From the NCBI GenBank assembly GCA_965219085.1, contig OZ244720.1:2272001-2336000 (forward strand): 64,000 nucleotides of DNA, in the 5' to 3' direction. Each line of letters begins with the position of its first letter. Position 1 is the stretch's first letter. Origin of the DNA: Dehalococcoidia bacterium. GTDB lineage: Bacteria; Chloroflexota; Dehalococcoidia; UBA2979. The position numbers and the translations under genes are program-made. The notes beneath the pieces were generated by a model, which was not told the DNA's origin, ran no database searches, and saw only the letters and a list, made by a program, of their open reading frames with translations. This document shows, one piece after another, positions 35,614-64,000 of this stretch.

Positions 35614-35657
35614 GCGCTATGCGCCGCGCATGACCTGCGCCGCCTCCACCATGTGCT
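35614..35657 (-). repeat. Displaced copy of metE 3' end
   Basis: 43/44 identical to 35861-35904; the mismatch is synonymous (GTC/GTG). Confidence 0.95.
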
Positions 35658-35659
35658 AC

Positions 35660-35818
35660 ATCGGCCTCGCGACAGTCGAGGCGGCGGAGGCAGCAGCGGA
35701 TCGCATCGCAGATCGGCTGCTGATCTGGCTCGGTGCGTGGACGCTGGGGGTCGTGCTGGGCGTCGTCAGCATTGCCACCGCGATCATCACCGCGGTGATC
35801 CGATTGAGCCTGTCCTAA
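35660..35818 (+). pseudogene. 5'-truncated paralog of 35370-35585
   Basis: AADRIADRLLIWLGAW..ATAIITAVIRLSLS versus AADRMLIRLGAW..ATAIIIAVIRLSFS. Confidence 0.7.
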
Positions 35819-35863
35819 CGCCCCTACTGCCTCGATCCCCGGCGCCGTACTCGCGCTGGTGCG

Positions 35864-38164
35864 CTATGCGCCGCGCATCACCTGCGCCGCCTCCACCATG
35901 TGCTCCAGCGCCGGCACCGTCTCCTCGTAGCGACGCGTCTTGAGGCCGCAGTCCGGGTTCACCCACAGCAGCCCGGGATCGAGCACCGACGCCGCCTCCT
36001 CGAGGCGGCCGACCATCTCGGCCGCCGACGGTACGCGCGGTGAGTGGATGTCGTACACGCCGAGCCCGAGGTCCTTGTCGTAGCCGCGGTCGCGGAAGCC
36101 GTCGAGGCTCTCCGCGTCGGAGCGCGCGTTGAACAGCAGCATCACGTCGGCCTCCATCTCGGAGACCGCGTCCAGCACATCGCCGAGGTGCACGTAGCAC
36201 ATGTGCGACTGGATCTGCGTGTCGTCGCGCACCCCCGCCGTCGCCAGGCGGAAGCACGGCACGGCCCAGCCGAGGTACGCCGGCCAGTCCGCGCGTCGCA
36301 GCGGCACGCCCTCGCGCAGCGCAGGCTCGTCGACCTGGATCACGCGGATGCCGGCTGCCTCGAGGTCCACGACCTCGTCGCGGATCGCGAGGGCGATCTG
36401 GCGGCACGTCTCCGCGCGGGGCTGGTCGTCGCGCACGAACGACCAGTTGAGGATCGTCACCGGCCCGGTGAGCATGCCCTTCACGGGGCGGTCGGTCAGC
36501 GACTGCGCGTACGTCGCCCAGCGCACCGTCATCGGGCCCGGGCGCGCCACGTCGCCGTACACGATCGGCGGCTTCACGTTGCGCGACCCGTACGACTGCA
36601 CCCACCCGAAGCGCGTGAACGCGAAACCGTCGAGTTGCTCGCCGAAGTACTCGACCATGTCGTTGCGCTCCGACTCGCCGTGCACGAGCACGTCGAGGCC
36701 GATGCGCTCCTGGAGCCGGATCACCTGCTCGATCTCGGCCTCGAGGAAGCCCTCGTACTCCTCGGCGGTGATGCGGCCGTTGGCGAAGCGGCGGCGCTCG
36801 CGCCGGATCTCCGGCGTCTGCGGGAACGAGCCGATCGTGGTGGTCGGGAACGGCGGCAGGCCGAGGCGCATGCGCTGCGCAGCACGGCGCTCCTCGACGC
36901 CCCCGTCGCGGTCGTAGTCGTCCGACGTGGTCGATGCGACCCGCTCGCGCACGGCGGGGTTGTGCGTCCGAGGCGAGTTGCGGCGCGACTCGAGCGCCGA
37001 GCGGTTCGCGGCGAGCTCATCGGGTGCGGCGTTCGGGTCGACGAGCGCGCGGCCGAGGACGGCGACCTCCTCGATCTTCTGGTTCGCGAACGCGAGCCAC
37101 GAGCGCAGCTCGGGGTCGAGGTCGGTTTCGAGGCCGAGCTCGATCGGCACGTGCAGCAGCGAGCACGACGCGCCGACGATGACGCGGTCCTCGCCGACGG
37201 CCGCGCCGATGTCGCGCAGCGTCGCGAGCGAGGCGTCGAGGTCGTTGGCCCAGACGTTGCGGCCATCGACGACGCCTGCGACGACGTGCTTGCCGCCCGG
37301 CAGGCCGTGGCGCTGCAGCAGCCCGAGGTTGCGCCGCCCGCGCACGAGGTCGAGGCCGATCGCCGCCACGGGCAGCTCGGTGAGCGTGCGGTACGCCTCG
37401 TCGACATTGCCGAAGTAGGTCTGCACCAGCAGCTTCGTCGAGCCGGCCGCCGTGGCCAGGCGCTCGTAGGCGCGGGTGAGCGCGGCCAGCTCCTCGGGTG
37501 TGCGGTCCTGCACGAGCACCGGCTCGTCGAGCTGCACCCACTGCGCGCCCGCCTCGTGCAGCAGCGCGAGCACCTCGGCGTAGACATCGAGCAGGCCCGG
37601 CAGCAGCGAGAGCAGGTCGAACCCGTCGTCGTGGTTGCCGTCGGCGTCGAAGCCGCGCGCGAGCAGCAGGAACGACACCGGCCCGAGCAGCACGGGCATC
37701 GTCTCGATGCCCGCCGCGCGCGCCTCGAGGTACTCGTCGAGCGGCTTGCGGTTGGCCAGCCGGAAGCGCGTGGCTGGCGACAGCTCGGGCACGAGGTAGT
37801 GGTAGTTGGTGTCGAACCACTTCACCATCTCGAGCGCGGTCACGTCGATGCCAGCGTCCTGCGCGCCGCGCGCCATGGCGAAGTAGGTGTCGAGGCCCCC
37901 GTCGCCGCCGTTGCGGTAGCGCGGCGGCGCCGCGTCGACCATCGCGATCGTGTCGAGCACGTGGTCGTAGTACGAGAAGGCGTTCGAGGGGATGAGGTCG
38001 ATCCCCGCGTCGCGCATGCGCGTCCACGCCTCCAGGCGCAGCGAGCGAGCGGTCGCCTCAAGGTCCTCGCGGCCCACTTCCCCGTCCCAGTAACCCTCGA
38101 CGGCGCGCTTGAGCTCGCGCCGCGCGCCGATGCGCGGATAGCCGGAGAGGGCGGACAGGGCCAT
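35864..38164 (-). CDS. metE: Cobalamin-independent methionine synthase
   Basis: GYPRIGARRELK, KWFDTNYHY, PTTTIGSFPQT, WVQSYGSR, WVNPDCGLKTR. Confidence 0.97.
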   Translation of the reverse strand: MALSALSGYPRIGARRELKRAVEGYWDGEVGREDLEATARSLRLEAWTRMRDAGIDLIPSNAFSYYDHVLDTIAMVDAAPPRYRNGGDGGLDTYFAMARGAQDAGIDVTALEMVKWFDTNYHYLVPELSPATRFRLANRKPLDEYLEARAAGIETMPVLLGPVSFLLLARGFDADGNHDDGFDLLSLLPGLLDVYAEVLALLHEAGAQWVQLDEPVLVQDRTPEELAALTRAYERLATAAGSTKLLVQTYFGNVDEAYRTLTELPVAAIGLDLVRGRRNLGLLQRHGLPGGKHVVAGVVDGRNVWANDLDASLATLRDIGAAVGEDRVIVGASCSLLHVPIELGLETDLDPELRSWLAFANQKIEEVAVLGRALVDPNAAPDELAANRSALESRRNSPRTHNPAVRERVASTTSDDYDRDGGVEERRAAQRMRLGLPPFPTTTIGSFPQTPEIRRERRRFANGRITAEEYEGFLEAEIEQVIRLQERIGLDVLVHGESERNDMVEYFGEQLDGFAFTRFGWVQSYGSRNVKPPIVYGDVARPGPMTVRWATYAQSLTDRPVKGMLTGPVTILNWSFVRDDQPRAETCRQIALAIRDEVVDLEAAGIRVIQVDEPALREGVPLRRADWPAYLGWAVPCFRLATAGVRDDTQIQSHMCYVHLGDVLDAVSEMEADVMLLFNARSDAESLDGFRDRGYDKDLGLGVYDIHSPRVPSAAEMVGRLEEAASVLDPGLLWVNPDCGLKTRRYEETVPALEHMVEAAQVMRGA

Positions 38165-38302
38165 GGGAGGGCTCCTCGGGGCGTGGGGATTCGGGGCTCG
38201 CCGGGTGGGTACGACGATCGTAGCGCGGGCGGTCGTGGCGGGCTACGCGGAAGCGCGCCGCATTGCGAGGCACTCACGCGTTGTGGTGTCTATAATGGCG
38301 TC

Positions 38303-38545
38303 ATGCCGGGAACGCCGCTCCCGCAGCTACGTGCACGAGCCGGGAGCCTGACGGCACGCGACCTCGTGCGCGAGTTGCGGGCGCGAGGATGGGTCGAAAT
38401 GGAGCGGAGGCGCGGCAAGGGCAGCCACCGAGTGTTCCGGAAGCCAGGCAGGCGCCGGGTTGTGGTTCCCCGAAGGCCCGCGCGAGGGACGGTGTTCGGC
38501 ATCCTCGGGAGCATCGAGGCGGATGAGGAGGCGGATCATGACTGA
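38303..38545 (+). CDS. hicA: HicA family toxin
   Basis: LRARGW..RGKGSHRVFRKPG..VVVP; TATAAT at 38291-38296; overlaps hicB start. Confidence 0.8.
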   Translation: MPGTPLPQLRARAGSLTARDLVRELRARGWVEMERRRGKGSHRVFRKPGRRRVVVPRRPARGTVFGILGSIEADEEADHD

Positions 38546-39005: not shown

Positions 39006-39032
39006 CAGGCTCGTCGAGCCGTGCTTCTCTTG

Positions 39033-39860: not shown

Positions 39861-39926
39861 GTCAGCTCCAGCCTGACCACCGTTGTCGGGGGATCGTCGC
39901 CAGGCCCAACTCGGCTGCCGCCAAAG

Positions 39927-43787
<3,861 letters not shown>

Positions 43788-43982
43788 GGGAGCCCCCGGA
43801 TACGGCGGGGGTCAGACGGATCGCAATGCGTGCCCGGCCCCCGGCGGCGAAGTCACTGCGAGAACTGATGAGGCGCGTATGCGCGCGAACCCGCAGGGGA
43901 GCAAACGTTACCGAGATCGACTATCAGTTGTCAACGTGAGGAGACGCCTTAGCAATAAGGATAACGCGTCGGCCGAGGGGGC

Positions 43983-44042
43983 CTACCCGCTCCCCACGAT
44001 CGCCTCGAGGTCATCCGGCTGCTTCGGGATCGCGCCCGACAG
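43983..44042 (-). repeat. Displaced copy of pepP 3' end
   Basis: 51/60 identical to 44732-44791; LSGAIPKQPDDLEAIVGSG* versus LSGAIPKAPEDLEAIVGSG*. Confidence 0.95.
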
Positions 44043-44047
44043 CCGGC

Positions 44048-44419
44048 TCAGCGGATCTGCCGCACCCGGCCCGCCGACCCCCATGCCGTGTCCGCCGTCA
44101 GCACATCGGCGTCGAGGCGCTCGCCGAGAGCCATGCAGAGACGGTCCGCCAGCGACAGGTTCTCGCCGCGTCGCCAGCGGCGCGCGGCCCACTCGGCGTC
44201 CGCTTCCAGTACCGGCTCGACGCGGACCCCGTAGCCCGCCAGCAGCGCCCCGCGGGCCATAGGCCAGTCCCGGCCCGCTGCCAGCACCCACTGCGCTACC
44301 TCGGACCAGTTCGCGGCGCCGCACCTGGCGTCGCTGGCGAGCGCCGACTCGACCACGTCGGCGCCTTCCTCGCCATGCACGAAGGCGAGCACCGCCGACG
44401 CGTCAAGCACGACCGTCAC
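44048..44419 (-). CDS. vapC: VapC/PIN-domain toxin
   Basis: VVLDASAVLA, NWSEV, LSLADRLC, LTADTAW. Confidence 0.9.
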   Translation of the reverse strand: MTVVLDASAVLAFVHGEEGADVVESALASDARCGAANWSEVAQWVLAAGRDWPMARGALLAGYGVRVEPVLEADAEWAARRWRRGENLSLADRLCMALGERLDADVLTADTAWGSAGRVRQIR

Positions 44420-44661
44420 CCGGCGTCCTCGAGCTCAGCAGCGCGCCGCCGCTCCGCGAGCAGCTCGCCCACGAGGTCGAGACCGGCGAGGTCGGCGCGG
44501 ACGCGGTCGAGTAGCTGCTCGCGCGTCAGCAGGAGCAGACCGTCCGGCGTCTCGAGCAGCATGAGTTGCGTGCCCTCAACCAGCCCTCTGCGCGCGCGGA
44601 CCTCGGCGGGCACGACGACCCTGCCCCGGTCTCCCACAACGACGCTATACGTCCCATCCAT
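44416..44661 (-). CDS. AbrB/MazE-type antitoxin
   Basis: VGDRGRVVVPAEVRARRGL; GTGA overlap with vapC. Confidence 0.88.
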   Translation of the reverse strand: MDGTYSVVVGDRGRVVVPAEVRARRGLVEGTQLMLLETPDGLLLLTREQLLDRVRADLAGLDLVGELLAERRRAAELEDAG

Positions 44662-44731
44662 GGTGCGAGCGTACCACATCGTGATCGTTGGTGGGATCCG
44701 GGACGTGGTGGTGCGCAGGGCAGTCCGATGA

Positions 44732-46054
44732 CTACCCGCTCCCGACGATCGCTTCGAGGTCTTCCGGGGCCTTCGGAATCGCACCGGACAGCACGCGGTA
44801 GCCGTCGCGCGTGACCAGCACGTCGTCCTCGATGCGCACGCCGATGCCGCGCAGCCGCCGAGGCACGCCACGGATGCCGGGCGCGAAGTAGAGGCCCGGT
44901 TCCACCGTCAGCACCATGCCCGGCCGCAGCTCGACCGACTCCTCGCCCTCGCGGTAGCGGCCGACGTCGTGCACGTCCATGCCGAGCCAGTGCGAGGTGC
45001 CGTGCATGAAGAACGGCCCGAACGCGCGCTGCTCGATGAGCCCCGCGATGTCGCCGGACAGCACGCCGAGGTCGACGAGGCCCTCGGTGAGTACCTCGGC
45101 GGCCTTGTTATGCACGTCGTGGAAGCGCACGCCTGGCTTGATGAGCGCGGTCGCCTGCTCCTGTGCCTCCAGCACCAGTTCGTACACGTCGCGGGCGGCG
45201 GCGCGGAAGCGGCCGTCGACGGGGTAGGTGCGCGTAACGTCGGCGCCGTAGAAGTCGACCTCGGCGCCGGTGTCGACGAGCAGCAGCTCGTTGCGCGCCA
45301 TCTCGGCGCGGTTGGCGGTGTAGTGCAGCGTGCAGGCGTTCGCGCCGGCCGCGACGATCGAGGGGAAGCCGTCGCGCGGCGAGCCGAGCCGGCGGTACTC
45401 GGCCTCGAGGATCGCTTGCACCTCGTACTCATGCATGCCGGGCCGCGTCGCGCGCATCGCGGCCTCGATGCCGGCGCCGGTGATGTCGATCGCGCGCTGC
45501 AGGGCGGCGATCTCATCGCGCGACTTGATGACGCGCTGCGCCGCCACGAGCGGCGCGGGATCCATGATCGCCTCGATCGGGCGTGCGCCGCCCTGCGCGG
45601 CGGCGCGGCGCTGCGCCACGATCCGCGAGCACAGCCGCTCGACGCGCTCGTCGCTGCCGAGCGAGTAGTAGACGGTCCCCGCGCCCGCGAGCAGCTGCGG
45701 CAGCCGCCGTTCGAGCTCCTCGATCGGGTAGGCGGCGTCCGCGCCGAGCTCCTCGACGGCGCCGTCGACGCCGAGGCGGGCGCCCACCCAGACGGCCATC
45801 GCCGGGTCGTAGGGGCGCACGAAGAGCACGAACGGCTCGTCGTGGCCGGGCCTGAGCACGGCGACCGCGTCGGGCTCGTCGAAGCCGGTGAGGTAGTAGA
45901 ACGTCGAGGGCTGTCTGAACGGGTGCTCGACATCGCCGTTGCGCAGCGCGTCGTGCCCGGCCGCGAAGATCGCGGCGCTGCCCGGGCGGAGGCGTCGCAC
46001 CAGCCGCGACCGGCGTCGCGCGAAGGTCTCGGAGGGGAAGGCGTCGGAGGTCAT
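44732..46054 (-). CDS. pepP: Xaa-Pro aminopeptidase P
   Basis: FRQPSTFYYLTGF, YGADVTRTYP, HGTSHWLGMDVHD, TVEPGLY, GVRIEDD. Confidence 0.95.
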   Translation of the reverse strand: MTSDAFPSETFARRRSRLVRRLRPGSAAIFAAGHDALRNGDVEHPFRQPSTFYYLTGFDEPDAVAVLRPGHDEPFVLFVRPYDPAMAVWVGARLGVDGAVEELGADAAYPIEELERRLPQLLAGAGTVYYSLGSDERVERLCSRIVAQRRAAAQGGARPIEAIMDPAPLVAAQRVIKSRDEIAALQRAIDITGAGIEAAMRATRPGMHEYEVQAILEAEYRRLGSPRDGFPSIVAAGANACTLHYTANRAEMARNELLLVDTGAEVDFYGADVTRTYPVDGRFRAAARDVYELVLEAQEQATALIKPGVRFHDVHNKAAEVLTEGLVDLGVLSGDIAGLIEQRAFGPFFMHGTSHWLGMDVHDVGRYREGEESVELRPGMVLTVEPGLYFAPGIRGVPRRLRGIGVRIEDDVLVTRDGYRVLSGAIPKAPEDLEAIVGSG

Positions 46055-50816: not shown

Positions 50817-50822
50817 GGCGGG

Positions 50823-51050: not shown

Positions 51051-51053
51051 GGG

Positions 51054-51371: not shown

Positions 51372-51508
51372 GGAACCTCCAGGTGACGCTCGGCTGACGG
51401 CCCGCCGGGCGGGCAGGACGCCTGCGACAGGCTACCGCGCGCGCCTGCTAACGTCAGCAACGACGCCGCGCGACACTCGGGCGGGCGCGCGTCCCGTGGT
51501 CGGCGGCG

Positions 51509-54500
51509 TCAGAAGCGGAGCGCGGCCTGCCGCGCCGCTCCCGGCGGCTGACGCTCGTCGTCAGACGGGCTGGGCAGTTCGTCGGCGGTGAAGAGCGCCG
51601 AGCCGCAGACTTCGTCGAGCAGCACCGCGCCCCCGGCTGGAGCCGCACCGTCTCCTCCAACACCCAGAGCAGTTCGAGCAGTTCGCCGGCGAACTCCCAG
51701 CGATCAGGGCGGATCTCGTCAAGGTCCGAAGACTTCCGGCCCGAGCGATCGCGCTTGCGCCGGTCCAGCCACGACTTGACGACGTGCAGACCGGAGACGG
51801 AGTAGTCATAGACCTCCGGGCTGACGGGCGCGAACTCGCCGTCGCCGACGCGCAGCACGCGCTCGGCCTCGTCGTAGGAGTGGCCCTCCGGCAGCGGCGT
51901 CGGAGGCACCTCCTTCGTGTTGCGGGCCTCGCCGTGCGGGACGCCCGGCGGGCGACCGGGGCCGATGAAGCGCTCGCCGTAGGTGTGGAGGTGCAACAAG
52001 CGCTCGCCGAGGTCGGCGACGCGCGCGAACAGCGCGCCGTCCTTTGTGATCGGAAGCCGCGGCGGCGGCTGCTCCAGCTCGTCCCAGAAGCGCTCGACAT
52101 ACGAGGGTTGGGCGAGGATGCCGTAGGCGTATACGAACAGGCGCTCCGCCGTGGGGGGCCGCCCGTGCGCCTCGCCGATGCGCTCAAGGAGGCTCCCGGT
52201 GACGTTGGGCTCTGTCGCGTCCGCGTCGCGGTACAGGGGAATGACGTCCTTCGCTCCGCGGCCGCAAAAGTGGTCGAGGTCCGGGATGGCAGCCGATGCG
52301 GTCGCCGCCGGACCTGTGCCGAGGACTTTGGTCAGTAAGCTAGTGACATAAACCTGTCGTTCGCTATGGGCGCGATGCAAGGCTGGGCGACAGAAGTCGC
52401 CCAGCCTTGCATCGCGCAAGATGTGCTGACGGTCCAAGGACCTGTAGGCGTACGGTGCTAGACCGGGCGGCGGTGAATCGCGACGAAGTGACGCGATGGA
52501 CGGTTCAGTACGGTCGCCCACGAGTGGTGGGTACTCGCGGCGAATCGTACGGTCCCGTGTCTCGCGGAATAGATCCGCTCGCCCATCCGTGGAGTGTTCG
52601 AGCAGTGCCCGCCACCGGTCTGTAAGCGCCTGTGGCGTCTCGGCTATCGGCCACGTTCGTTTGAACTGCATGCCCGAGTGCTGCCACGGGAAGACATCGA
52701 TGATCGCGGGCCAGTCGAAGTAGCCGCCGGGTTCGGCTGGCATGAACGGCGCATCCCACCCTTCCGCGCAGTCGCGCCAGTCGAGGTCGTCGAGCGATTC
52801 GGCGGCGTCGAGCGCGCCGAGCTTCTGCTGCTCGCTGCCGGTGAGCCGCACCCTGTGGATCTTCGCGGGCTCTGCAGGTTCGGGCTTGCCGTTGCGGACG
52901 CCGATGGCGATGGCGACGGGCGTTCGGATGGCGAAGACGTTCTCCGTCTTGCGCGCCCCGAGGCTGTCGCCCTCGAGATCGATGATCCACAACTCGTCGA
53001 ATACCTCGCGCATCTTACGGCGCATCCCGGCGAAGGCCGGGCCGCGCAGGTACGACGAGGCAGTGATGAACGTGACGATACCGGCGTCGTTCGTCGAATC
53101 GAGCACCTTCCAGAGCGCCCAGCGCCAGAAGTAGACGTAGTCGTTGTAGAGGTTCTTGAGGTGGACGCCGCCGCCAGCCTCGCGCACGGGGGCCAGGAAG
53201 TCCTCAAGCAGTGGGTCGGCGTCCTCGTCCTCGTCGCCGTAGCGTACCCATCCGCCTTTGCGGCGATCGGGGTCATCGTCCGGGCCGCGCTGCTCGCGGT
53301 CATACGGCGGATTGCCGAGGCAGACGAAGATGCGTGTCTCCCGCTTCACATCCCTCGCACGCTCGCGCTCGTCAGTGAGGGCCTTGTAGAGCACGCCTTC
53401 CGCCAGCCGCGACTGGACGTTCGGGGACTCCAGTGTGTCGGCGAGGTAGACGAGCGGGTTACGGTCGGTCACGCCCAGTTCGCGCAGCCGCTGGGTGAGG
53501 CGCAACTGTGCGACCGCGTAGGGCCCGACGAGGATCTCGAAGGCGTGCAGCCGCCCCGCCAGGTCGCGCAGCCGCCCCGGCACGCCGCCCTCGCCAAGCC
53601 GGTCGCGCGCCGCCTCCGCCGCGCGCTGGAGCACCGCGAGGGGGTACGTGCCCGTGCCGCAGGCCGGGTCGAGCACCTCGACGCCGTCGTCGGCGAACCC
53701 CATCGGCTTGTTGAAGCGGGTGCGCAGCAGCTCCTCCGCGAAGCGCACCTGCGCGCGCACGACCTCGACGGGCGTGAAGTAAACTCCTCGGTTCTTGCGC
53801 AGCTCCGCGTCGTACGCGCCAAGAAAGTGTTCGTAGAAATACAACCACGGGTCGCGGTCGATCTCCTCCGAGGGGTTGAATGCGCCTTGCCATCCGCGCC
53901 CGGCGAGCAAGGCGCGGGCCTCGACGACGCCGACGGCCCGCTCCAGCAGGTCGATCGGCATCGACAGCTCTTCGCGGGCCTCGCGGTTCTCCAGCAGGTC
54001 CAGGGCGGTCGCCAGCAGGTCGTGCTGCCGCTCCCGTAGCCGGTCCGAGGCGAGCGCCTGGCGGAGGTTCTCCGCGCCCTCGAAGCGCGCCAGCAGCAGC
54101 GCGTACGTCACCGTCTGAGCATAGGCGTCCGCGAATTGTGCCGCGTTCGCGTCCGCGAAGAGCACGCCGCGCCACTCGCCGGCGATCTGGCTGACCGCGC
54201 TGCCCTCGCGGTCGAGCGCCTCGTGCACCTCGTCGCGGAGCAGGCGGGCGAGCGGGGCGAGGAACTCGGCGAGCCCGCGCGCCGTTCGTGGCGTAATCGG
54301 CTCGTGCATCAGGAAGTCGCGCAGCAACCGTTCGAGCTTCGTCAGCGCCGCCGCGTTGAGGCCCATCGCGCCCTCAGCGCTCACGTCGTCGGCGATGCGC
54401 ACACGCTCGCCGACGGGCTCGCCGCTGCGGAACAGGCTCCACTCGGAGCCGTCGGTGTAGATCAGGTTGGGCAGCGCCTGGAATCGCACCCACTGCCGGT

Positions 54501-54801
54501 GATCGCGTCCGCGCAAGCGCTCCGGCCTCGCGCCGCGTCCCGGCGGCTTGAGTTCGACGTGGCCGCAAAGCAGGCCGTCGGCGGTGACGCCGAGGTCGGG
54601 CCGCCCGATGTGGCCCTCGGCGCGAGCCTCCGTGCGCGAGGCGACCTCGATGGCCCACGCGTCGCCGCAAGCGCGCAGTAACTCGCCGACGGGCGCCTTG
54701 AGCTGGTCCTCGGGTTGCGCCGTGACGGGCAGCGCGAAGTTCGCCGCTACGGCTGCAGCGAAGTCCCGGACGGCGTCCTCGAACGGCTGGCCGACTGTCA
54801 T
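51509..54801 (-). CDS. Fused restriction-modification enzyme (PD-(D/E)XK nuclease, N6-adenine MTase, type ISP-like specificity domain); apparent 1-nt frameshift near 3' end
   Basis: RPD..VELK; GVYFTP, LDPACGTGT, GNPPY; YAYRSLDR, SWLDRR. Natural-looking tail LLDEV..LFTADELP..ERQPP..LRF* lies in another frame after the C5 run at 51630-51634. Confidence 0.85.
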
Positions 54802-56855: not shown

Positions 56856-56945
56856 GCGAGGCAGTCCAAGTCGCGAAGCTGCCTCTCCGCGGAGGGTCTA
56901 AGCTAGCGCCCGCTCCCACCGCAGTGCCCGCGTATGCGCCGCGGC
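56856..56945. repeat. higA 3' remnant followed by degenerate gap-tail-like segment
   Basis: ARQSKSRSCLSAEGLS* versus higA end LAQQRSRSRPDASGLS*; GGGTCTAAGCTAGC..GCTCCCACC shared with 57582-57609. Confidence 0.7.
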
Positions 56946-56991
56946 CCGCTTGGCCGACCATCGTGCCGCGCGTGGGACAGGTGCGTCGCTG

Positions 56992-57287
56992 GTGGATGTC
57001 GAGTTCCGCACGCGCCGACTTGAGCGCTGCTTCGAGCACCTCAACCTCGCCATACGGGAGTGGGGCCCGGAGGTAGGCCCGCGCTACGTCGAGCGCGTCA
57101 GGGCACTGTATCGGGCGCGCGGCTTCGAGTTCCTGTACGGATTCAGAGTGCTCGGGCTCCATCCCTCAGGGGCGATCGACGCGGTCAGTACGCGCTGCGA
57201 CTGACTGGCCGGGTGCGGCTGATCATCGAACGGGGAGACGACCCTGATACTGTGATCGTCGTCGAGGTGGTGGACTATCATGACTAG
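56992..57287 (+). pseudogene. higB: HigB/RelE toxin, frameshifted
   Basis: VDVEFRTRRLERC..LHP, then LRGDRRGQYALRLTGRVRLI..VVDYHD in another frame; one base missing at CCC 57163-57165. Confidence 0.8.
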
Positions 57288-57594
57288 CGTGACAAGCACA
57301 GCACGGCGCCTGGTCGTCTCGGATGCCGTGATCCACCCCGGCGAGCTCCTCGCCGAGGAGCTTGAGGTACGCGGCATGACTCAGCGCGAGCTCGCGCTCG
57401 CGATGGGGCGGCCGCCGCAGCTCATCAGCGAGATCGTCCGTGGCCGTAGGGGTATCTCGGCGGAGACGGCGCTCCAGCTCGAGGCCACGCTCGGCACTGC
57501 GGCTCACATCTGGGTCGGGCTCGACGCCGACTACCGCCTCGCCCTCGCGCAGCAGCGGTCACGTAGCCGCCCCGACGCGTCGGGTCTAAGCTAG
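57280..57594 (+). CDS. higA: HigA antitoxin
   Basis: IHPGELLAEELEVRGMTQRELA..ISEIVRGRRGISAETA. Confidence 0.9.
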   Translation: MTSVTSTARRLVVSDAVIHPGELLAEELEVRGMTQRELALAMGRPPQLISEIVRGRRGISAETALQLEATLGTAAHIWVGLDADYRLALAQQRSRSRPDASGLS

Positions 57595-57598
57595 CTCT

Positions 57599-57637
57599 CC
57601 GCTCCCACCTCAGCCTGCACAGATCCGCGAGTCGGCG
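57599..57637 (-). repeat. Degenerate copy of gap 3' end
   Basis: 29/39 ungapped match to 58307-58345; RRLADLCRLRWER versus CRLADVCALMAER. Confidence 0.6.
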
Positions 57638-57679
57638 CCCGGCTGACTGCAGCGGCTTGTGCGCGAGGGGTGTGCGCCG

Positions 57680-57977
57680 GTGGAGGTACGGTTCCGCACG
57701 CGAACGCCTCGAGCGGTGTGCCGGACACGTGGGAGCGGCGGTGCGCGCATGGGGCCCCGAGGTTGGTCCGCGCTACATCGAGCGGGTCCAGCTCCTCCAG
57801 GAGGTTCCGTCTGTGGAGACACTGTTCCGTTTCCGCGCGGTGGGCTTCCACCCCCTCCGTGCCGACCGTCGAGGACAGTTCGCTCTCCGGCTCACCGGTC
57901 GGATGCGGCTGATCATCGAGCGTGGGCCGGACGACCGCTCGCTGACGGTGGTCGAGGTGGTTGACTATCATGACTAG
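57680..57977 (+). pseudogene. higB: HigB/RelE toxin, apparent +1 frameshift near 5' end
   Basis: VEVRFRT in one frame, ERLERC..VVDYHD in another; extra base near 57701. Confidence 0.7.
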
Positions 57978-58248
57978 CGTGACTCAGACAAAGATCGTTC
58001 CCGACATCGCGATCCCGCCAGGCGAACTCCTCGCCGAGGAGCTTGAGGCGCGCGGCATGACGCAGCGCGACCTCGCAACGCTCATGGGGCGCCCACCGAA
58101 GGTGATTAGCGAGATCGTCCGGGGCCGGAAGGCGATTACGCCGCGCACGGCCATCCAGATCGAGGAAGCTCTCGGTACACCCGCGAGCGTATGGGTCGGC
58201 CTTGAGGCGCAGTACCGCCTCGTGCTCGCCCGCCAAGAAGTCGCGTAG
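57970..58248 (+). CDS. higA: HigA antitoxin
   Basis: IPPGELLAEELEARGMTQRDLA..ISEIVRGRKAIT. Confidence 0.9.
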   Translation: MTSVTQTKIVPDIAIPPGELLAEELEARGMTQRDLATLMGRPPKVISEIVRGRKAITPRTAIQIEEALGTPASVWVGLEAQYRLVLARQEVA

Positions 58249-58294
58249 CGACCCTCGACGCCAACTCGGGCAGGTCGAGGGCTGCGCAAGGGGG

Positions 58295-59314
58295 CTACTC
58301 CAGCCCACGCTCCGCCATCAGCGCGCACACATCCGCCAGCCGGCACGCGTAGCCGTACTCGTTGTCGTACCACGCCATCGTCTTCACCATCCGGCCGCCG
58401 TCGACGACCATCGTCGCCGGCAGGTCGAAGATCGAGGAGCCGGGGTGGCTCTTGAAGTCCGTCGACACCAGTTCCTCGCGCTCCACGTAGAGCACGCCCT
58501 CCATGGGGCCTGACGCCGCCGACTGGAAGGCCTCGTTGATCTCGCCCACCGAGGCGCGCTGCGCCAGGTCCGTCGCGAGGTCGACGACCGAGACGGTCGG
58601 CGTCGGCACGCGGTAGGCGAGGCCCGTCAGCTTGCCCTCGAGCTCCGGCATGATCTTTGACACCGCGCTCGCCGCGCCCGTCGAGGTCGGGATGATGTTG
58701 AGCCCGGCGGCGCGCGCGCGCCGCAAGTCCTTGTGCTTCGAGTCCATCAGGTTCTGGTCGCGCGTGTAGGAGTGGATCGTGGTCATCAGCCCGCGCTCCA
58801 CGCCGAAGGCGTCGTGCAGCACCTTCACGACGGGCACGACGCAGTTCGTCGTGCACGAGCCGGCGCTGATCACGTGGTGGCTGGCGGGGTCGTACTCGTC
58901 GTGGTTGACGCCGTAGATGACCATCCAGTCCTCGCCGCGGCCGGGGGCCGAGATGAGCACCTTCTTCACGCCGTCGCGGAGGTGCAGCGCCGCGCTGTCG
59001 CGGTCGCGGAACGCCCCGCTCGACTCGACGACCACGTCGACGCCGGCGGACGCCCAGTCGATGGTGGCGGGGTCGGAGCCCTCGAAGACGCGCACCTCGT
59101 GGCCGTCGATCGAGAAGCAGCCGTCGCCGTCGACGACCTCGGCGGGGAAGCGGCCGTAGTCGGAGTCATAACGCAGCAGGTGGGTGTGCATGTCGACGGG
59201 CGAGCGCCCGTTGATCGCGACGATCTCGAAGTCCTCGCGGTTGCGTTCCCACCAGGCGCGCAGGAACTGGCGCCCGGTGCGGCCGAAGCCGTTGATCCCC
59301 ACCCGCATGGCCAT
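58295..59314 (-). CDS. gap: Type I glyceraldehyde-3-phosphate dehydrogenase
   Basis: VGINGFGR, SAGSCTTNC, IIPTSTGAA, RVPTPTVS, WYDNEYGY. Confidence 0.96.
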   Translation of the reverse strand: MAMRVGINGFGRTGRQFLRAWWERNREDFEIVAINGRSPVDMHTHLLRYDSDYGRFPAEVVDGDGCFSIDGHEVRVFEGSDPATIDWASAGVDVVVESSGAFRDRDSAALHLRDGVKKVLISAPGRGEDWMVIYGVNHDEYDPASHHVISAGSCTTNCVVPVVKVLHDAFGVERGLMTTIHSYTRDQNLMDSKHKDLRRARAAGLNIIPTSTGAASAVSKIMPELEGKLTGLAYRVPTPTVSVVDLATDLAQRASVGEINEAFQSAASGPMEGVLYVEREELVSTDFKSHPGSSIFDLPATMVVDGGRMVKTMAWYDNEYGYACRLADVCALMAERGLE

Positions 59315-59403: not shown

Positions 59404-60300
59404 CTACAGGAGCACGCGTTTCGTCGCGTCGCCCGGGCGGCGGCGGAAGTCCGTGAGCAGGTGTCGGCGCCGCCCCGACTCGTCGATGTGCTCCTCGAGC
59501 CGGCAGCGCTGGCCCTCGAGCAGGTGGACGTCGACCTCCCGCACGTGCGCGACGACCTCGTCGCGCAGCTCGCGCGAGGCCGGGAAGTGCCCGGCGGCGT
59601 GCATGGCGATGTGCAGCTGGCGCGTCCCGATGCGCAGCAGCCAGCCGAGCAGCAGCTCGGCCCAGCCGAGGTGGAACGCCTCGTCGCCGAAGATCAGCGG
59701 GTAGCGACGCTCGGACGCCTCGTTCGCCGTAAAGAGCGCCGTCGGCCCGAAGTTGGGGCGGCCGAGGTCGCTGGCGGCGCGGTAGATGGCGCGCAGGTGC
59801 TCGTCGCCGGCGATGGCCTCGCCGCCGAAGTAGTGCCCGAGCCCCACGTCCTCGGCGCGCGCCTGCTCGTGGCGGGCGTAGGCCTGGTGCGCCCACTCCA
59901 GGAACGACTCGATCTCCCCGGGCAGGGCGGACTGCGCGGCGACGTGCTCGATCGCCTGGCGGACGAGCGGGACGGCGCTCTGGTATGCGCCGCGCCGCAC
60001 CAGCGACGCGGCGTCCGAGGTGCATAGGAACGCCCGGCTCCACAGCGAGGCGAGCGCGGCCATCGTCATCGTGCGCGCGCTGGGCGTGTAGCCGCTGGCG
60101 GCGAAGCGCGCCTGCACGTCGAGGCCCGCTTCGAGCAGGCGCAGGTCGTCGCCGAGCACGAAGCCGGTCTGCCGCCACGCGTCCTCGGCGGCGTCGGAGA
60201 GCGCATCGGGCTTGCCGGGCAGCGTCCACGAGTCGGGGACGCGCATGCCGGAGACGCGCTGCGGAGCGCCGAGGGGCGAGAGGTCGCCGTTGAAGGTCAT
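59404..60300 (-). CDS. Hypothetical protein
   Basis: Long ORF with host-like codon usage; ATG 60300 follows GAGG. Confidence 0.7.
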   Translation of the reverse strand: MTFNGDLSPLGAPQRVSGMRVPDSWTLPGKPDALSDAAEDAWRQTGFVLGDDLRLLEAGLDVQARFAASGYTPSARTMTMAALASLWSRAFLCTSDAASLVRRGAYQSAVPLVRQAIEHVAAQSALPGEIESFLEWAHQAYARHEQARAEDVGLGHYFGGEAIAGDEHLRAIYRAASDLGRPNFGPTALFTANEASERRYPLIFGDEAFHLGWAELLLGWLLRIGTRQLHIAMHAAGHFPASRELRDEVVAHVREVDVHLLEGQRCRLEEHIDESGRRRHLLTDFRRRPGDATKRVLL

Positions 60301-60327
60301 GCCCTCATTCTGGCCGATCGGACAGCT

Positions 60328-60376
60328 GCGGGGCAGGTTCTCGGTGTGCGTGCATGGTGGGTCCGAGGTGTACTCG
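60328..60376 (-). repeat. Displaced copy of the helicase 3' coding end
   Basis: 45/49 identical to 62701-62749; all four differences synonymous (EYTSDPPCTHTENLPR). Confidence 0.95.
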
Positions 60377-60474
60377 CTGATGGCGCAGGCGCCCCCGCCC
60401 ATGCCATGATGTCCTGCGGACGGAGAGCCAGCAGCGAGTGTCGAGTGAACGTCATGGCGCTGCCAAGAGCTATC

Positions 60475-60550
60475 TGGTGCCGGGGGCCGGGCTTGAACCG
60501 GCGACGCGCGGTTTTCAAGACCGCCGCTCTACCCACTGAGCTACCCCGGC
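60475..60550 (-). tRNA. Atypical tRNA: UGA (Ser) anticodon on a class I body
   Basis: GCCGGGG TA GCTC AGTGGGTA GAGC G GCGGT CTTGAAA ACCGC GCGTC GCCGG TTCAAGC CCGGC CCCCGGC A CCA; all stems Watson-Crick; 5-nt variable loop; A73. Confidence 0.9.
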
Positions 60551-60560
60551 TTCGGTAGGC

Positions 60561-60604
60561 GGTGCGAGGCGGGCTCCTCTTTACACGGCGAGCCCGCCTC
60601 CACC
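60561..60604. other. Strong hairpin between hypothetical gene and atypical tRNA
   Basis: GAGGCGGGCTC/GAGCCCGCCTC perfect 11-bp stem, extendable by GGTG/CACC. Confidence 0.6.
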
Positions 60605-60611
60605 GAATCCG

Positions 60612-61058
60612 CTAGAATGGTAGGTCGTCCACCTCCGGCTTCTTAAATTGGTACAGCGCTGGCTCTTCCTCACCGACACGCTCGATGCTGGCATGGCCTT
60701 GGAGCACCGCGTTGAGCGTCCGCAGCGGCACATTCAGGTGGGCGTCCCGCAGCGTGGTCGCGATTGTGGCGCGTGTGAGTGGCTTTCCAGCTTCGAGGAG
60801 GACTTCCACGATTGCCTTGGCGGGATCCGCTCGTACGAACCGGAATTCGCCGGTGGCGCCGGTCCCGGGTGGCCACCCTGCGATGCGGTGCGGTCCGCCC
60901 CCGAGTCGCTCCCACGCAGCGTCTCTGAGGGCTGCGTACTTGATGGCGGCCACATTGAAATTGATCCGGGCCTGACTCAACTGCGTATTCGCGTCAGCCA
61001 ATTGTTCTTCGGCGTCTGCGATGGATCGGAGAATTGCATCTGTGTAGTCGTCGTTCAC
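60612..61058 (-). CDS. Hypothetical protein (coiled coil plus possible winged helix; ends DDLPF)
   Basis: GAGGTG SD before GTG 61058; lower GC; AIVEVLLEAGKPLTRATIA. Confidence 0.6.
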   Translation of the reverse strand: MNDDYTDAILRSIADAEEQLADANTQLSQARINFNVAAIKYAALRDAAWERLGGGPHRIAGWPPGTGATGEFRFVRADPAKAIVEVLLEAGKPLTRATIATTLRDAHLNVPLRTLNAVLQGHASIERVGEEEPALYQFKKPEVDDLPF

Positions 61059-61288
61059 TCGTATACACCTCTCTGAGAGATCGAGTATATGACGGATGTC
61101 AACCACCGATCTATCTAATATCGCTAGTGGGTTACGAATGATGGAACAGAGTGCTCTTGTGCTGCGCGTACGTCCCCACAGAAGCCGCGCGCCATGTGGG
61201 GCACTGCTGGTAGATCCTGTCCCTCCGGTGCCCCAGTGCATCGGGCCGTGGGAGCGAGCGGTCTAGCCCCGAACGGGGCTGAACTCAG

Positions 61289-62652
61289 GGTCACGTCCCT
61301 GCAAGTGGTGTAACAGTGCACCATCCTGATCATTTGCTAGCTGGCGGTCTGCAGTAGCACCTCCTCGCCTGAGGCGACCTCGGCCACGGCCGCCGGCAGC
61401 GGCTGCAGCATCGTCATGTAGCGCCGCCCCTCCGCCCACTCGTCGTGCTGCTCGGCGAGCACGGCGCCGACCAGCCGCACGACGGCGGCACGGTTGGGGA
61501 AGATGCCGACCACGTTGGTGCGCCGCCGGATCTCCTTGTTGAGGCGTTCCAGCGGGTTGTTCGACCAGACCTGCCGCCAGTGGACCGGGAAGGCCGTAAA
61601 CGCCAGGATCTCCGGCCCGGCGTCGGCGAGCAGCGCCGCGGCCTCGGGGAAGCGCTCGGCGAGCTGCTCCACCACGCGGGCGTGTTGGGCCTGCACCTCG
61701 GCCGCCGAGGACTGCTCGTAGATCGTCCGCACCGTCGTCGCCACCAGCTTCTCGGCGCTCTTCGGCACCCGGGTCAGCAGGTTGCGCATGAAGTGCGTGC
61801 GGCAGCGCTGCCAGGAGGCGCCGGCGAAGACCGTCGCGATCGCCTCCCTGAGGCCCTGGTGCGCGTCCGAGGTGACGAGCTCGACGCCGGACAGGCCGCG
61901 CGCCACGAGCCCGCGCAGGAAGCTCAGCCAGAACGCCCCGTCCTCGGAGGTGCCGACGTCGATGCCCAGCAGCTCGCGCTTGCCGGAGGCGTTGACGGCG
62001 GTGGCGACGACCACGGCCACCTGCACGACGCGGCCCTCCTCGCGCACGAGCTGGGTGAGCGCGTCGAGCCAGAGGTAGCGGTAGGGGCCCGAGTCGAGGG
62101 GCCGCTCGAGGAAGCTCGAGACGACCTCGTCGAGTTCAGCGCAGATGCGCGAGACCTGGCTCTTGGAGATGCCGTCGCAGCCGAGCGAGCGCACGAGGTC
62201 GTCGACGCGACGGGTCGAGACGCCCTCGACGTAGGCCTGCGTGACCACGGAGACCAGGGCGCGCTCCGAGCGCCGCCGCGGCTCGAGCAGCGAGGGGAAG
62301 TAGCTGCCCTCGCGCAGCTTCGGGATGCCCAGTTCGATCGTGCCCACACGCGTGTCCCAGCGCCGCGGCCGGTAGCCGTTGCGCCGGGTCAGGCGCGTCT
62401 CGCTGCGCTCGCCGTGGGCGGCGCCGATCTGCTCGGAGACCTCGGCGTCCATCACCGCCTGGGCGAGCACCGCGACCGCCTCGCGCAGAAAGTCGAGGTC
62501 CGCTCCGTCCGCCTGCTTGCGCAGCAGTTCCAACAAGTCCACGCTCTCCTTGACCACAGTCGTCCTCCTCCACGTGACTCTTCTTCTTGTGAAGGATGGC
62601 GCTGTGGTCTCCTACGTCTACCTCCTGTGACACCACTTCCTGGGACGCTACT
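61289..62652 (-). mobile_element. IS256-family insertion sequence
   Basis: 25-bp imperfect terminal IRs (GGTCACGTCCCTGCAAGTGGTGTAA / AGTAGCGTCCCAGGAAGTGGTGTCA); 8-bp direct repeat GAACTCAG at 61281-61288 and 62653-62660. Confidence 0.93.
61337..62557 (-). CDS. IS256-family transposase
   Basis: RNGYRPR, IPKLREGSYFP, GVSTRRV, YLWLDA, TSDAHQGL, WQRCRTHF, NPLERLNKEIRRRT. Confidence 0.96.
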   Translation of the reverse strand: MVKESVDLLELLRKQADGADLDFLREAVAVLAQAVMDAEVSEQIGAAHGERSETRLTRRNGYRPRRWDTRVGTIELGIPKLREGSYFPSLLEPRRRSERALVSVVTQAYVEGVSTRRVDDLVRSLGCDGISKSQVSRICAELDEVVSSFLERPLDSGPYRYLWLDALTQLVREEGRVVQVAVVVATAVNASGKRELLGIDVGTSEDGAFWLSFLRGLVARGLSGVELVTSDAHQGLREAIATVFAGASWQRCRTHFMRNLLTRVPKSAEKLVATTVRTIYEQSSAAEVQAQHARVVEQLAERFPEAAALLADAGPEILAFTAFPVHWRQVWSNNPLERLNKEIRRRTNVVGIFPNRAAVVRLVGAVLAEQHDEWAEGRRYMTMLQPLPAAVAEVASGEEVLLQTAS

Positions 62653-62676
62653 GAACTCAGTGCGTGGGCGGCTGCT

Positions 62677-64000
62677 TCACGCTCTGACGTACGCCGATCG
62701 GCGCGGCAGGTTCTCGGTGTGCGTGCACGGCGGATCCGAGGTGTACTCGGTGCACCCAAGGAACTGGCCGTAGCGCCCGTACCGCGTGACCAGCACGCCG
62801 ACGCCGCACGTCCGGCACACCGTCGGCGGGCGGGCGCACGAGGCGTTGGTGCACCTCGCGCGGCCGTCGGCGGGGATGGCGTAGCCGGCGTTGCAGTTGG
62901 CGCACCTCGGGGCGAGGTGCCTGCACATCGGGTGGTTCGAGCAGCGCAGGTTCCTGCCGCTCTGCGAGGCGACCAACTTGCCGCCGAGACACCGAGGGCA
63001 CTCGGGCGCGTCGTCTCCGGGGAGCTCGCCGAGCTGGCGCAGATCGGCGCCGTCGCGCCGTAGCTCGGTGACGAACGCCGACGGAAGCTGCGGGTCGGTG
63101 ACGAGGTAGGCGCCGCGCCGCGCGCGCGTCATCGCGACGTAGAACAGGCGGCGCTCCTCGGCGTGCGGGAACCCCGTCGCCGCGCCCGAGGGGAGCACGA
63201 GGTCCAGCAGCGGGTCGTCCTCGACCTGTGACGGGAAGCCGCGACGCTCGTTCTTGAGGTCGAGCACCACGGCGTAGTCGGCCTCGCGGCCCTTCGCGCG
63301 GTGCACGGTGCTGAACTCGACGCGGAGAGGCGCGACGCCCGCCGGGGGGCGCGCGCTGTTCCGGTAGCGGCCGAGGACGAGCACGGAGGGCGAGTCGTGG
63401 CGGTCGGCCGCGGCGCGCTCCTTGATGTCCTGCAGCGCGCGCCAGAGGCCGCGGCCGGGATCGCCGTCGGCGACGATGGTGACACCGTCGTCGCGGTTCT
63501 CGCGAGCCGACCGCAGCGGGCGCTGCGTCTGCGCGGGGTTGCGCTGCACGAAGGCCGTCGAGGGCCGGAGGATGCCGTCGGCGAAGCGGAAGGTCTGGCT
63601 GAGCGTGCGCTGCCGCACGTGGCCGAGGTAGTCGCCGCAGTTGCGCACCAGCCCCACGTCGCTCCCGGCGAAGCGGTAGATCGACTGCCAGTCGTCGCCG
63701 ACGAGGAAGTACGCGGTGTCCGGCCCCTTCAGCGCTTCGATCAGTCGCATCCGTCCCGCGGAGATGTCCTGGAACTCGTCGACGAGGATGTGGCGGTACG
63801 ACGCCCGCCACGCACCCTCGCGTATGAGCGCGGCGGCGCGGTTGATGAGGTCGTGGAAGTCGACCGCGTTCTCCTCGGCGAGCATCGCCTCGTAGCGCTC
63901 GCGCACCTGCTCGAAGACGGCGAGGAAGCTCTCGCTGCGCCGCCGGTCCGAGGAGGCGCGGGCGCGCTCGCGCAACTCGGCGGGCGAGGCGCCGCTGGTC
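62677..64000 (-). CDS. UvrD-like (helicase IV-type) DNA helicase with C-terminal Zn-finger repeats (5' truncated)
   Basis: ILVDEFQDIS, VGDDWQSIYRFAGS, STVHRAKGREAD, EERRLFYVAMTRA, several CxxC; frame open to the window edge. Confidence 0.9.
   Translation of the reverse strand, partial: TSGASPAELRERARASSDRRRSESFLAVFEQVRERYEAMLAEENAVDFHDLINRAAALIREGAWRASYRHILVDEFQDISAGRMRLIEALKGPDTAYFLVGDDWQSIYRFAGSDVGLVRNCGDYLGHVRQRTLSQTFRFADGILRPSTAFVQRNPAQTQRPLRSARENRDDGVTIVADGDPGRGLWRALQDIKERAAADRHDSPSVLVLGRYRNSARPPAGVAPLRVEFSTVHRAKGREADYAVVLDLKNERRGFPSQVEDDPLLDLVLPSGAATGFPHAEERRLFYVAMTRARRGAYLVTDPQLPSAFVTELRRDGADLRQLGELPGDDAPECPRCLGGKLVASQSGRNLRCSNHPMCRHLAPRCANCNAGYAIPADGRARCTNASCARPPTVCRTCGVGVLVTRYGRYGQFLGCTEYTSDPPCTHTENLPRRSAYVRA

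Follow-up and report, generated by a model that had tools for sequence, protein, structure and literature searches.

In a stretch of 64,000 nucleotides (nt) from the chromosome of a Dehalococcoidia bacterium (bases 2272001-2336000 of the single 3.31-Mb contig OZ244720.1), referred to below as the window, the ends of genes recur a short distance downstream of the genes they belong to, with small accessory genes (cargo) in between. Such a gene-end cassette lies behind pepP, a gene for a Xaa-Pro aminopeptidase-like protein, and a related arrangement is found at a UvrD-like helicase gene; the original prediction, made from the window alone, had placed two more behind metE and behind gap, which encodes a glyceraldehyde-3-phosphate dehydrogenase-like protein. 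The genome has a G+C content of 69.8%, and public sequencing runs containing the pepP stretch carry mostly sponge-metagenome labels. Coordinates are window positions unless marked as genome positions. Repeats in the window were taken from a self-BLAST of positions 33000-64000, cargo families were assigned with Pfam and NCBIfam and tRNAs with ARAGORN and Rfam, while the names pepP and gap are translation-based labels given without a search of the family libraries. The self-BLAST returned four repeats, and three of the four gene-tail repeats noted before (pepP, helicase and metE) were recovered.

The last 61 nt of pepP occur a second time behind the gene (85.2% identity, E 9e-13), and the repeat ends exactly at the pepP stop codon (Table 1). 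No third copy was found in the 3.3-Mb genome. The space between the two copies is taken up by just two genes, for a MazE/AbrB-type antitoxin and a PIN toxin, with Pfam matches to MazE_antitoxin and PIN; the label given earlier to this cargo had been AbrB-VapC. The packing is tight, with 52 nt from the pepP stop codon to the start of the first cargo gene, an overlap of 4 nt between the two cargo genes and 4 nt between the PIN stop codon and the downstream copy, which we call the relic. As adjacent small genes of known families, the pair fits a predicted type II toxin-antitoxin module.

The two pepP tails show six synonymous differences and three that are not. The relic represents the KQPDD variant usual among relatives, with whose functional tails it shares 88-95% identity; for the functional tail (KAPED) the figure is only 80-84%, with the gene body just upstream at ~90%. 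Two relatives (G014 and G007) have an empty site, at which pepP is followed by the native spacer and then by the ribonucleotide reductase gene, and the stretch absent there is the cargo plus one copy of the repeat. Three further relatives (G008, G016 and G018) have a homologous antitoxin gene (72-74% identical) behind pepP together with a decayed relic of only ~27 nt and no toxin gene, and G003 has kept a relic of ~30 nt and no cargo. The KAPED variant, vapC behind pepP and a second tail copy were found in none of the 36 species-representative relatives. No integrase was seen at the pepP site of these 36 genomes, in searches that were aimed only at abrB, vapC and second tail copies. In G009 (C1:292800-297200), the site between pepP and the reductase gene holds three open reading frames (ORFs) which, from a reading of their translations, resemble a restriction enzyme, a cytosine-5 DNA methyltransferase and a Vsr-like endonuclease; no repeat is present at this site, and none of the three ORFs reads as an integrase.

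The genome appears to be a metagenome-derived single contig, and repeats with 85-90% identity could be strain variants, which would fit strain-chimeric assembly joins as the origin of the repeats. Contigs assembled from the runs of three studies, however, bridge the pepP junctions or the cargo. X10 contigs cover positions 43603-44843 and X11 contigs 43603-44770, both with 0 differences (these two may be the source sample), an X1 contig, which comes from another study, extends over 43603-44088 with 2 differences and spans the junction between relic and vapC, and an X14 contig covers the pepP cargo (44047-44612). The gap-side cassettes are likewise bridged by X10 and X11 contigs, and the metE layout is common to relatives. 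Chimeric joins, which had been named as a possible refutation, were therefore not borne out at pepP and gap, and we give an assembly artefact next to no credence. Among the 15 contig joints listed (139 further ones exist), none corresponds to a skip of 749 nt at pepP; these data consist of contigs only and are uninformative on excision.

At the helicase gene, the repeat comprises 52 nt (90.4% identity, E 3e-13), has no third copy in the 3.3-Mb genome and spans positions -75 to -24 relative to the helicase stop codon. The 2.3 kb between the copies consist of an IS256 insertion sequence (IS), an ORF of no known family and a tRNA gene, and of the differences between the copies four are synonymous and one is not. 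G014 shows the undisturbed site, with the repeated stretch in single copy, a helicase that ends in ...ENLPRRSDRMRA* and a stop codon that overlaps the ATG of the next gene. The insertion in our genome lies ~17 nt before that G014-type stop codon. The helicase has gained a new end of five residues, and the relic retains the native start region of the next gene. The cargo tRNA has an encoded CCA end and lacks the long variable arm of serine tRNAs. Its anticodon UGA would read the serine codon UCA, and a canonical tRNA-Ser(UGA) of 90 nt is located elsewhere (genome 2161132-2161221). The IS256-family element has at least nine further copies in this genome, with 84-100% identity, and many in relatives (G013, G014, G009).

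Behind gap, no copy of the gene tail was found with BLAST. By local alignment, relic A reached a score of 24, while 20 mid-gene controls did not exceed 17 and 100 codon shuffles did not exceed 19, in agreement with the earlier description of the gap copies as more degenerate. In one frame relic A reads ...RRLADLCRLRWER..., the gap tail for comparison ...CRLADVCALMAER.... The two gap cassettes are arranged in tandem (56870-57578 versus 57558-58261, 68.9% over 724 nt in the self-BLAST), and one degenerate relic lies behind each. Relics A and B are more alike than either is to the gene, and the simplest explanation is a single insertion followed by tandem amplification of cassette plus relic. An HTH_3 gene is found in both cassettes; the HigB identity proposed for the small ORFs was not confirmed, as these have no Pfam or NCBIfam match even at E up to 5.

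The metE locus has a different structure. Here, two units of 207-236 nt form a head-to-tail duplication of ~230 bp (73.7% over 236 nt, E 2e-34), and each unit comprises a small convergent ORF's 3´ part (plus strand), a spacer and the final 47 nt of metE (minus strand; functional tail 35864-35910, relic ~35617-35663). The tail of metE does recur as had been noted, but the units are only 12 nt apart and there is thus no foreign cargo between them. The three differences between relic and tail are L>M, an in-frame E>stop and one synonymous change, so that the description as mostly synonymous fails. G014, G007 and G003 share the layout. We regard the metE repeat as a separate, ordinary tandem duplication.

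Table 1. Gene-end repeats, their target genes and their cargo. Positions refer to the window unless marked genome.
Feature	Position	Strand	Details
pepP-like Xaa-Pro aminopeptidase gene (target)	44732..46054	-	ORF; orthologues with 74-90% DNA identity in 23 relatives
pepP functional tail copy (last 61 nt of the gene)	44732-44792	-	up to and including TAG
pepP relic copy of the tail	43983..44043	-	encodes ...KQPDDLEAIVGSG*; followed by native spacer before the ribonucleotide reductase gene
pepP cargo gene 1, MazE/AbrB-type antitoxin	44416..44679	-	Pfam MazE_antitoxin E 1.6e-5, 25.2 bits (cut-off 24.7)
pepP cargo gene 2, PIN-domain (VapC-type) toxin	44048..44419	-	Pfam PIN E 2.5e-10
UvrD-like helicase gene	stop at 62677, extends past window end	-	Pfam UvrD-helicase, UvrD_C, Zn_ribbon_Top1
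Helicase-end repeat, upstream copy	62701..62752	-	inside the helicase gene
IS256-family insertion sequence in helicase cargo	61287..62654	-	transposase 61337-62557, Pfam Transposase_mut E 4e-132
Helicase cargo ORF of no recognised family	60612..61241	-	no Pfam match; NCBIfam match sub-threshold only
Helicase cargo tRNA gene, 76 nt, anticodon UGA	60475..60550	-	ARAGORN; Rfam tRNA 69.2 bits
Helicase-end repeat, downstream copy (relic)	60328..60379	-	just upstream of the next gene's start codon
Gene next to the helicase gene in the empty-site relative G014	59404..60300	-	family unrecognised in Pfam, NCBIfam
gap (glyceraldehyde-3-phosphate dehydrogenase-like) gene	58295..59314	-	ORF; tail 58295-58354
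gap cassette 2	57657..58248	+	small ORF 57729-57977, HTH_3 gene 57979-58248 (Pfam HTH_3 E 1.8e-11)
gap tail, degenerate relic A	57582..57641	-	local alignment score 24
gap cassette 1	56950..57594	+	small ORF and HTH_3 gene (Pfam HTH_3 E 8e-9)
gap tail, degenerate relic B	56885..56955 (approximate)	-	scores 20 and 31; closer to relic A than to the functional tail
metE-side tandem duplication	35457..35910		unit A 35457-35663, unit B 35675-35910; self-BLAST
Mirror-case examples at gene starts	genome 1760783/1761918, 1097563/1102697, 3082362/3083147, 2547772/2548526		
Larger tail-type pairs, 15-21 kb apart	genome 3207634/3222410, 3251542/3269120, 506552/527462		47-59 nt, 81-85% identity

Viewed by themselves, the four window loci could be unrelated ordinary events (tandem duplication, IS-linked rearrangement, paralogy) brought together by coincidence or ascertainment: metE shows a plain tandem duplication, the gap cassettes stand in tandem, and IS256 is part of the helicase cargo. 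The distribution of such repeats over the whole genome argues against this. A whole-genome self-BLAST, filtered for direct repeats that are 30-140 nt long, at least 80% identical, 250-6000 nt apart, not inside one ORF and without further copies, left 44 pairs. In 15 of these the upstream copy ends between -3 and +12 nt from a co-oriented stop codon, compared with a mean of 0.62 and a maximum of 5 in 2000 random relocations; gene ends came from a simple codon-usage ORF caller (2902 ORFs covering 84.5% of the genome), which gives exact stop positions for a given ORF and approximate starts. The predicted enrichment of gene-end duplications over controls is therefore present. In addition, the cargo is consistent in type and lower in GC, and the empty sites match exactly one repeat copy. 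We consider it very improbable that no common process is involved. The pattern of gene-end repeats is real, recurrent and statistically strong, and it was mis-described at two of the four loci: as gene-tail repeats around cargo, pepP and the helicase stand, metE is a tandem duplication, and gap has weak, degenerate relics.

With looser limits 21 cases were obtained, and after setting aside two of them (a repeat-protein family and a possible paralogue) 19 loci remained. Their repeats end at -33, -24, -1, 0, 0, 0, 1, 1, 1, 2, 4, 5, 5, 6, 6, 11, 11, 22 and 74 nt from the stop codon. In all 16 listed cases that reach the stop, the overhang amounts to less than 0.3 of the repeat length (Kolmogorov-Smirnov test against uniform, p 9e-9), and at pepP and several other loci 100-250 nt of native spacer follow beyond the relic. 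Repeat lengths are 39-125 nt at the ~17 further loci besides pepP and the helicase, and the identities between copies run continuously from 100% to 75%.

Mirror structures are present at gene starts, where ~12 further pairs consist of a relic of the first 60-125 nt, the cargo and the functional start. In three to four of them the repeat starts at the start codon or no more than 3 nt from it, the others take in 27-92 nt of upstream sequence. Over longer distances, five pairs of tail repeats 8-200 kb apart end at stop codons, and by coordinates none of them encloses a recombinase. The three pairs that are 15-21 kb apart (Table 1) may be larger islands of the same kind. Two candidate explanations for the location of the repeat ends were rejected. 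Targeting of hairpins or terminators is not supported by the 45 nt after the relic, whose folding energy has a mean of -15.3 compared with -14.6 after 600 other stops (Mann-Whitney p 0.40), and a requirement that the repeat cover the ribosome-binding site of the next gene fits one locus (2-nt spacer), the spacers being otherwise -13 to 252 nt long.

The inserts are 0.4-2.4 kb in size. Cargo families in the window are PIN with MazE and the HTH_3 genes, those elsewhere in the genome PIN with Phd, PIN alone, Gp49 with an HTH gene, GNAT, NYN, Fic, DUF3800 and an AAA_16 ATPase (Pfam). The mean GC content of the cargo is 0.660 versus 0.697 in random windows (p 1.4e-4), with 17 of 21 below the genome mean, and this lower GC content suggests that the cargo is foreign-looking. 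None of the recombinase genes of the genome, located by coordinates, is in the 19 cargo segments, in line with the earlier observation that no cargo contains an integrase. Two full tyrosine recombinase genes are present, one for XerD (337 bits, above the cut-off) and one XerC-like (275 bits, below the cut-off), along with a single further match, a fragment with 19.8 bits; the eight large serine recombinase genes are all outside the cargo. Exceptions that bear an IS are the helicase cargo (IS256) and the cargo at genome position 6986, where the ORF reads from its translation as a putative transposase. A DNA transposon with target-site duplication was rejected: the 19 cargos lack terminal inverted repeats, only two related RHH-PIN cassettes have left or right ends in common, and the end-to-end scores of the cargos lie within the null range (at most 11 observed, null maximum 11.5). 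The run of identity at the left edge of the repeats is 2-36 nt long and has no common motif. The two related RHH-PIN cassettes (70-80% identical; genome 2158469-2159377 and 2199484-2199976) follow two different genes, and a separate local repeat belongs to each. The second one has lost most of the PIN gene, which suggests that cassettes decay in place.

An intact gene end, followed by cargo and a second copy of the gene end, is also the attL/attR anatomy of elements that target the 3´ ends of genes, and a repeat ending at the stop codon fits a replacement tail carried by such an element. The cassettes might thus be decayed or trans-mobilised site-specific elements, which once integrated at a gene 3´ end with their own integrase, brought the replacement tail and later lost the integrase. 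Cis-mobilizable elements (CIMEs) have, according to passages of Guedon et al. 2017 (PMC5704250), lost their integration genes and kept attL and attR; regeneration of the gene end and possible tandem accretion, as these passages describe them for elements of this type, are shared by our cassettes. Unlike CIMEs as portrayed there, the cassettes are very small and have many different targets, as well as mirror cases at start codons. No recombinase is found in the 19 cargos (0.4-2.4 kb) or, by coordinates, in the three 15-21 kb pairs, and the tyrosine recombinases of the genome are XerD and XerC-like only. Furthermore, relatives with the same cargo have no intact second att-like copy, and the restriction-modification-like ORFs at the pepP site of G009 are accompanied neither by a repeat nor by an ORF that reads as an integrase. 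We therefore judge an origin from CIME-like elements to be rather improbable.

Cargo that starts 0-6 nt behind stop codons, 30-125 nt duplicated at ~19 unrelated genes and the mirror cases at start codons would also be consistent with a trans-acting machinery that recognises gene boundaries, a kind of integron-like cassette capture free of recombinase genes and scattered over the chromosome of a symbiont in which classical integrases are nearly absent. We see a slim chance for such a machinery. The likeness to integron cassettes is that small, mostly promoter-poor genes for toxin-antitoxin systems, acetyltransferases or products of no assigned function are added singly, with the older ones pushed outward. 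Unlike integrons, the sites are scattered over the chromosome, the genome has no integron integrase (matches to TIGR02249 reach 103-105 bits, the cut-off is 265), and the cassettes share neither attC-like structures nor end motifs.

Empty sites in relatives were found at pepP, at the helicase and at other loci, the repeat being single-copy in relatives at the pepP, helicase, Fic, DUF3800, secreted-protein and Gp49 loci. The Fic site is empty in at least five relatives, which have one 81-nt tail there, the DUF3800 site is empty in G016, G007 and G018, and the site of the secreted-protein cargo is empty in G007 and G008. Other relatives have homologous cargo beside the same gene. This applies to DUF3800 in G012, G017, G013 and G011, with one tail copy detected, and to the secreted-protein cargo in G018 and G016, without a second tail copy. 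The PIN-Phd cargo is found at the same site in G016, G014, G005 and partly G007, again without a second tail copy, and the sequence right after the stop codon in these relatives is homologous to that of our genome. Donor-like layouts are thus present in the genus at 4 of the 7 loci examined (pepP, DUF3800, the secreted-protein gene and PIN-Phd); at three of the four a second tail copy was undetected, and at pepP a remnant of ~27 nt is left.

In the 20 pairs of copies compared, 32, 22 and 62 differences are located at codon positions 1, 2 and 3, respectively; 63 are synonymous and 53 non-synonymous, and there are 7 gap columns. The proposal that both copies had been under protein-level selection is supported by the synonymous bias at pepP (6/3) and the helicase (4/1), but not by the 53 of 116 differences that are non-synonymous, nor by the frameshifts and lost stop codons of the downstream copies. 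Several of the differences between copies are alleles that also exist in relatives. Polarisation of the differences at seven loci gave 9 sites derived in the functional copy and 19 in the relic; beside these counts stands the observation that the relic is usually closer to the tails of relatives than the functional copy is. Relic-derived sites are located to the left of functional-derived ones in 21 within-locus pairs, the reverse being true in 5, and the mean positions are 0.34 and 0.59.

The anatomy of the loci, the genome-wide enrichment, the empty sites, the recombinase-free cargo and the donor-like layouts elsewhere are all direct observations. To account for them, we tentatively favour homology-anchored additive integration, by circular crossover or by homology-facilitated illegitimate recombination, as the origin of most of the structures, a reading that in our estimate falls just short of being probable. 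A piece of DNA would arrive from a related genome in which the accessory cassette already adjoins a conserved gene, and would bring along the last 30-125 nt of this gene together with the cassette, or, at gene starts, the first part of the gene. It would then recombine with the gene end of the recipient, through a single crossover if circularised, or else through one homologous and one illegitimate join. We infer that the intermediate is circular or one-ended and that host recombination plays a role, and likewise the direction of transfer. The resulting order would be gene, intact tail, cassette, second tail copy and original downstream DNA, and the repeat would end at the stop codon because the homology between donor and recipient ends there (or, for the mirror cases, begins at the start codon). 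The upstream copy would stay in use and the downstream copy decay, and the repeats could later delete the cassette exactly or amplify it, as behind gap. Homology anchoring would account both for the limits of the repeats at the ends of coding sequences and for the presence of the same cargo beside the same gene in other species. Of the general mechanism that had been proposed for this lineage, the recurrent, integrase-free addition of small segments at gene ends holds; the homology-anchored route is the one we favour and a proposal only.

Several points weigh against homology anchoring. It gives no account of how a cassette first arrives beside a gene, and among the 36 relatives there is no donor for the pepP tail variant or for a vapC behind pepP. 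The related RHH-PIN cassettes occupy two separate gene ends, where each has a repeat of its own, and homologues of the NYN and Gp49 cargo are located at other loci in relatives; therefore, cassettes must also reach new sites in another way (around the NYN-gene homologues in relatives, no repeats were found at four loci). Vertical inheritance together with gene conversion between repeats could mimic the donor-like layouts. The share of differences at codon position 3 (62/116) lies between the rough expectations for allelic tails (~70-80%) and for duplication plus decay (~44%), and the pooled Mann-Whitney test of the allele mosaic is non-significant (p 0.085), its sites are non-independent, and it could be biased by poor alignment at the left edge of the repeat. 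The repeats at the helicase and at genome position 2158469 fall short of the stop codon by 17-33 nt, and all gene ends rest on a crude home-made ORF caller. Finally, both helicase copies share derived states relative to G014, as the duplication of native sequence would give. The duplicated sequence therefore looks native and not like an allelic tail, nor is the repeated stretch the true C-terminus of the protein.

These shared derived states would be expected if the cassettes had entered by non-homologous insertion with long target duplication, in which staggered breaks 30-125 nt apart are filled in and recipient sequence is duplicated. Only insertions with undamaged flanking genes would pass selection, and decay of the downstream copy would follow. 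Main-text passages of PMC2853133 describe this class for restriction-modification genes, and the continuous range of identities, the local repeat at each of the two RHH-PIN cassettes and the excess of derived sites in the relic (19 vs 9) agree with it as well. It offers, however, no reason why the repeats stop 0-6 nt past the stop codon where 100-250 nt of spacer are left, nor why, at 4 of 7 loci, other species have the same cargo next to the same gene and no intact repeat. At pepP, moreover, it is the functional copy that is the more divergent one. We consider this kind of insertion unlikely as the origin of the cassettes, yet to be taken seriously next to the homology-anchored integration that we favour.

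The gene-end cassettes are best filed with the known recombinase-free insertion classes, one of which has been published, as a descriptive class, for restriction-modification genes. For insertion with long target duplication, the work of Nobusato et al. from 2000 is cited; PMC2654758, for one, gives no more than the citation. According to main-text passages of Furuta, Abe and Kobayashi 2010 (PMC2853133), this class of restriction-modification insertions has repeats >30 bp, no mobility genes and an empty site in a related genome, its repeats often span start or stop sites, and the mechanism is left open, with double-strand breakage suggested. The screen of these authors, as these passages give it, asked for inserts <20 kb without another mobile element and with both the restriction (R) and the modification (M) gene inside. 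Compared with these passages, our loci are similar in their small inserts, in direct repeats of >30 bp that are single-copy at the empty site, in inserts <20 kb without other mobile elements (two IS exceptions) and in the possible amplification of cassettes. R and M genes together are not found in our inserts, this being a search criterion in that text and not a mechanism. Different from what the passages describe are the cargo (toxin-antitoxin, GNAT, NYN, Fic, DUF3800), the number of ~19 loci in one genome, the repeats that end almost at the boundary of the coding sequence, and copies that differ by 0-25%. In titles and abstract beginnings of the long-target-duplication literature, no report of toxin-antitoxin cassettes with such repeats was found.

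Homology-facilitated illegitimate recombination was proposed, in passages of Kirchberger et al. 2017 (PMC5361080), for effector-immunity arrays of the type VI secretion system (T6SS) and for Rhs tips; an E. coli conjugation study (PMC3240628) is grouped with this mechanism. C-terminal displacement is similar to the situation at our loci, in that a resident conserved stretch serves as anchor for incoming DNA, new sequence is gained, the old downstream part is pushed outward and no recombinase takes part. In the T6SS and Rhs cases of these passages, the conserved body of a polymorphic toxin locus acts as anchor and a functional tip or an immunity gene is displaced, whereas at our loci anchoring is by the final 30-125 nt of unrelated housekeeping genes and what is displaced is a useless relic.

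It is poorly understood how small cassettes for toxin-antitoxin systems and defence enter chromosomes without a mobility gene, and many hot spots of gene flux contain no mobile element. If homology-anchored integration is true, it would be a simple general route for the spread of cassettes between related genomes, and it would explain why cassettes hug gene boundaries and why there are relic gene tails, which can be mistaken for att sites or pseudogenes. It may also supply a mechanism for the class of insertions with long target duplication. Its footprint, repeat limits at the ends of coding sequences and allele mosaics, is readable and can be screened for in any genome collection.

The window contains further repeats that are separate from the gene-end cassettes. 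In the ribonucleotide reductase gene downstream of pepP (39927-43787, minus strand), a 27-nt unit that contains a palindrome is present three times in tandem and in frame (DAGIPRGST x3, 42708-42788), and a fourth copy is located 700 nt away (43467-43493). The 15-nt core of this unit has 66 occurrences in the genome, often as tandem arrays with a spacing of 25-30 nt, and 32 of the 66 are inside called ORFs. ARAGORN reported a 'tRNA-???' inside the same gene (43217-43313), for which there is no Rfam support. An 18-nt tandem repeat encoding TPT(A/D)TE units is located at 34192-34425, in an ORF (32063-34597, plus strand) for a large secreted-looking protein with a putative LysM-like C-terminal end, the latter from a reading of the translation. 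A further ORF of 1115 amino acids (51454-54801) contains a near-perfect palindrome of 48 nt (52370-52417), which is 91.7% self-complementary.

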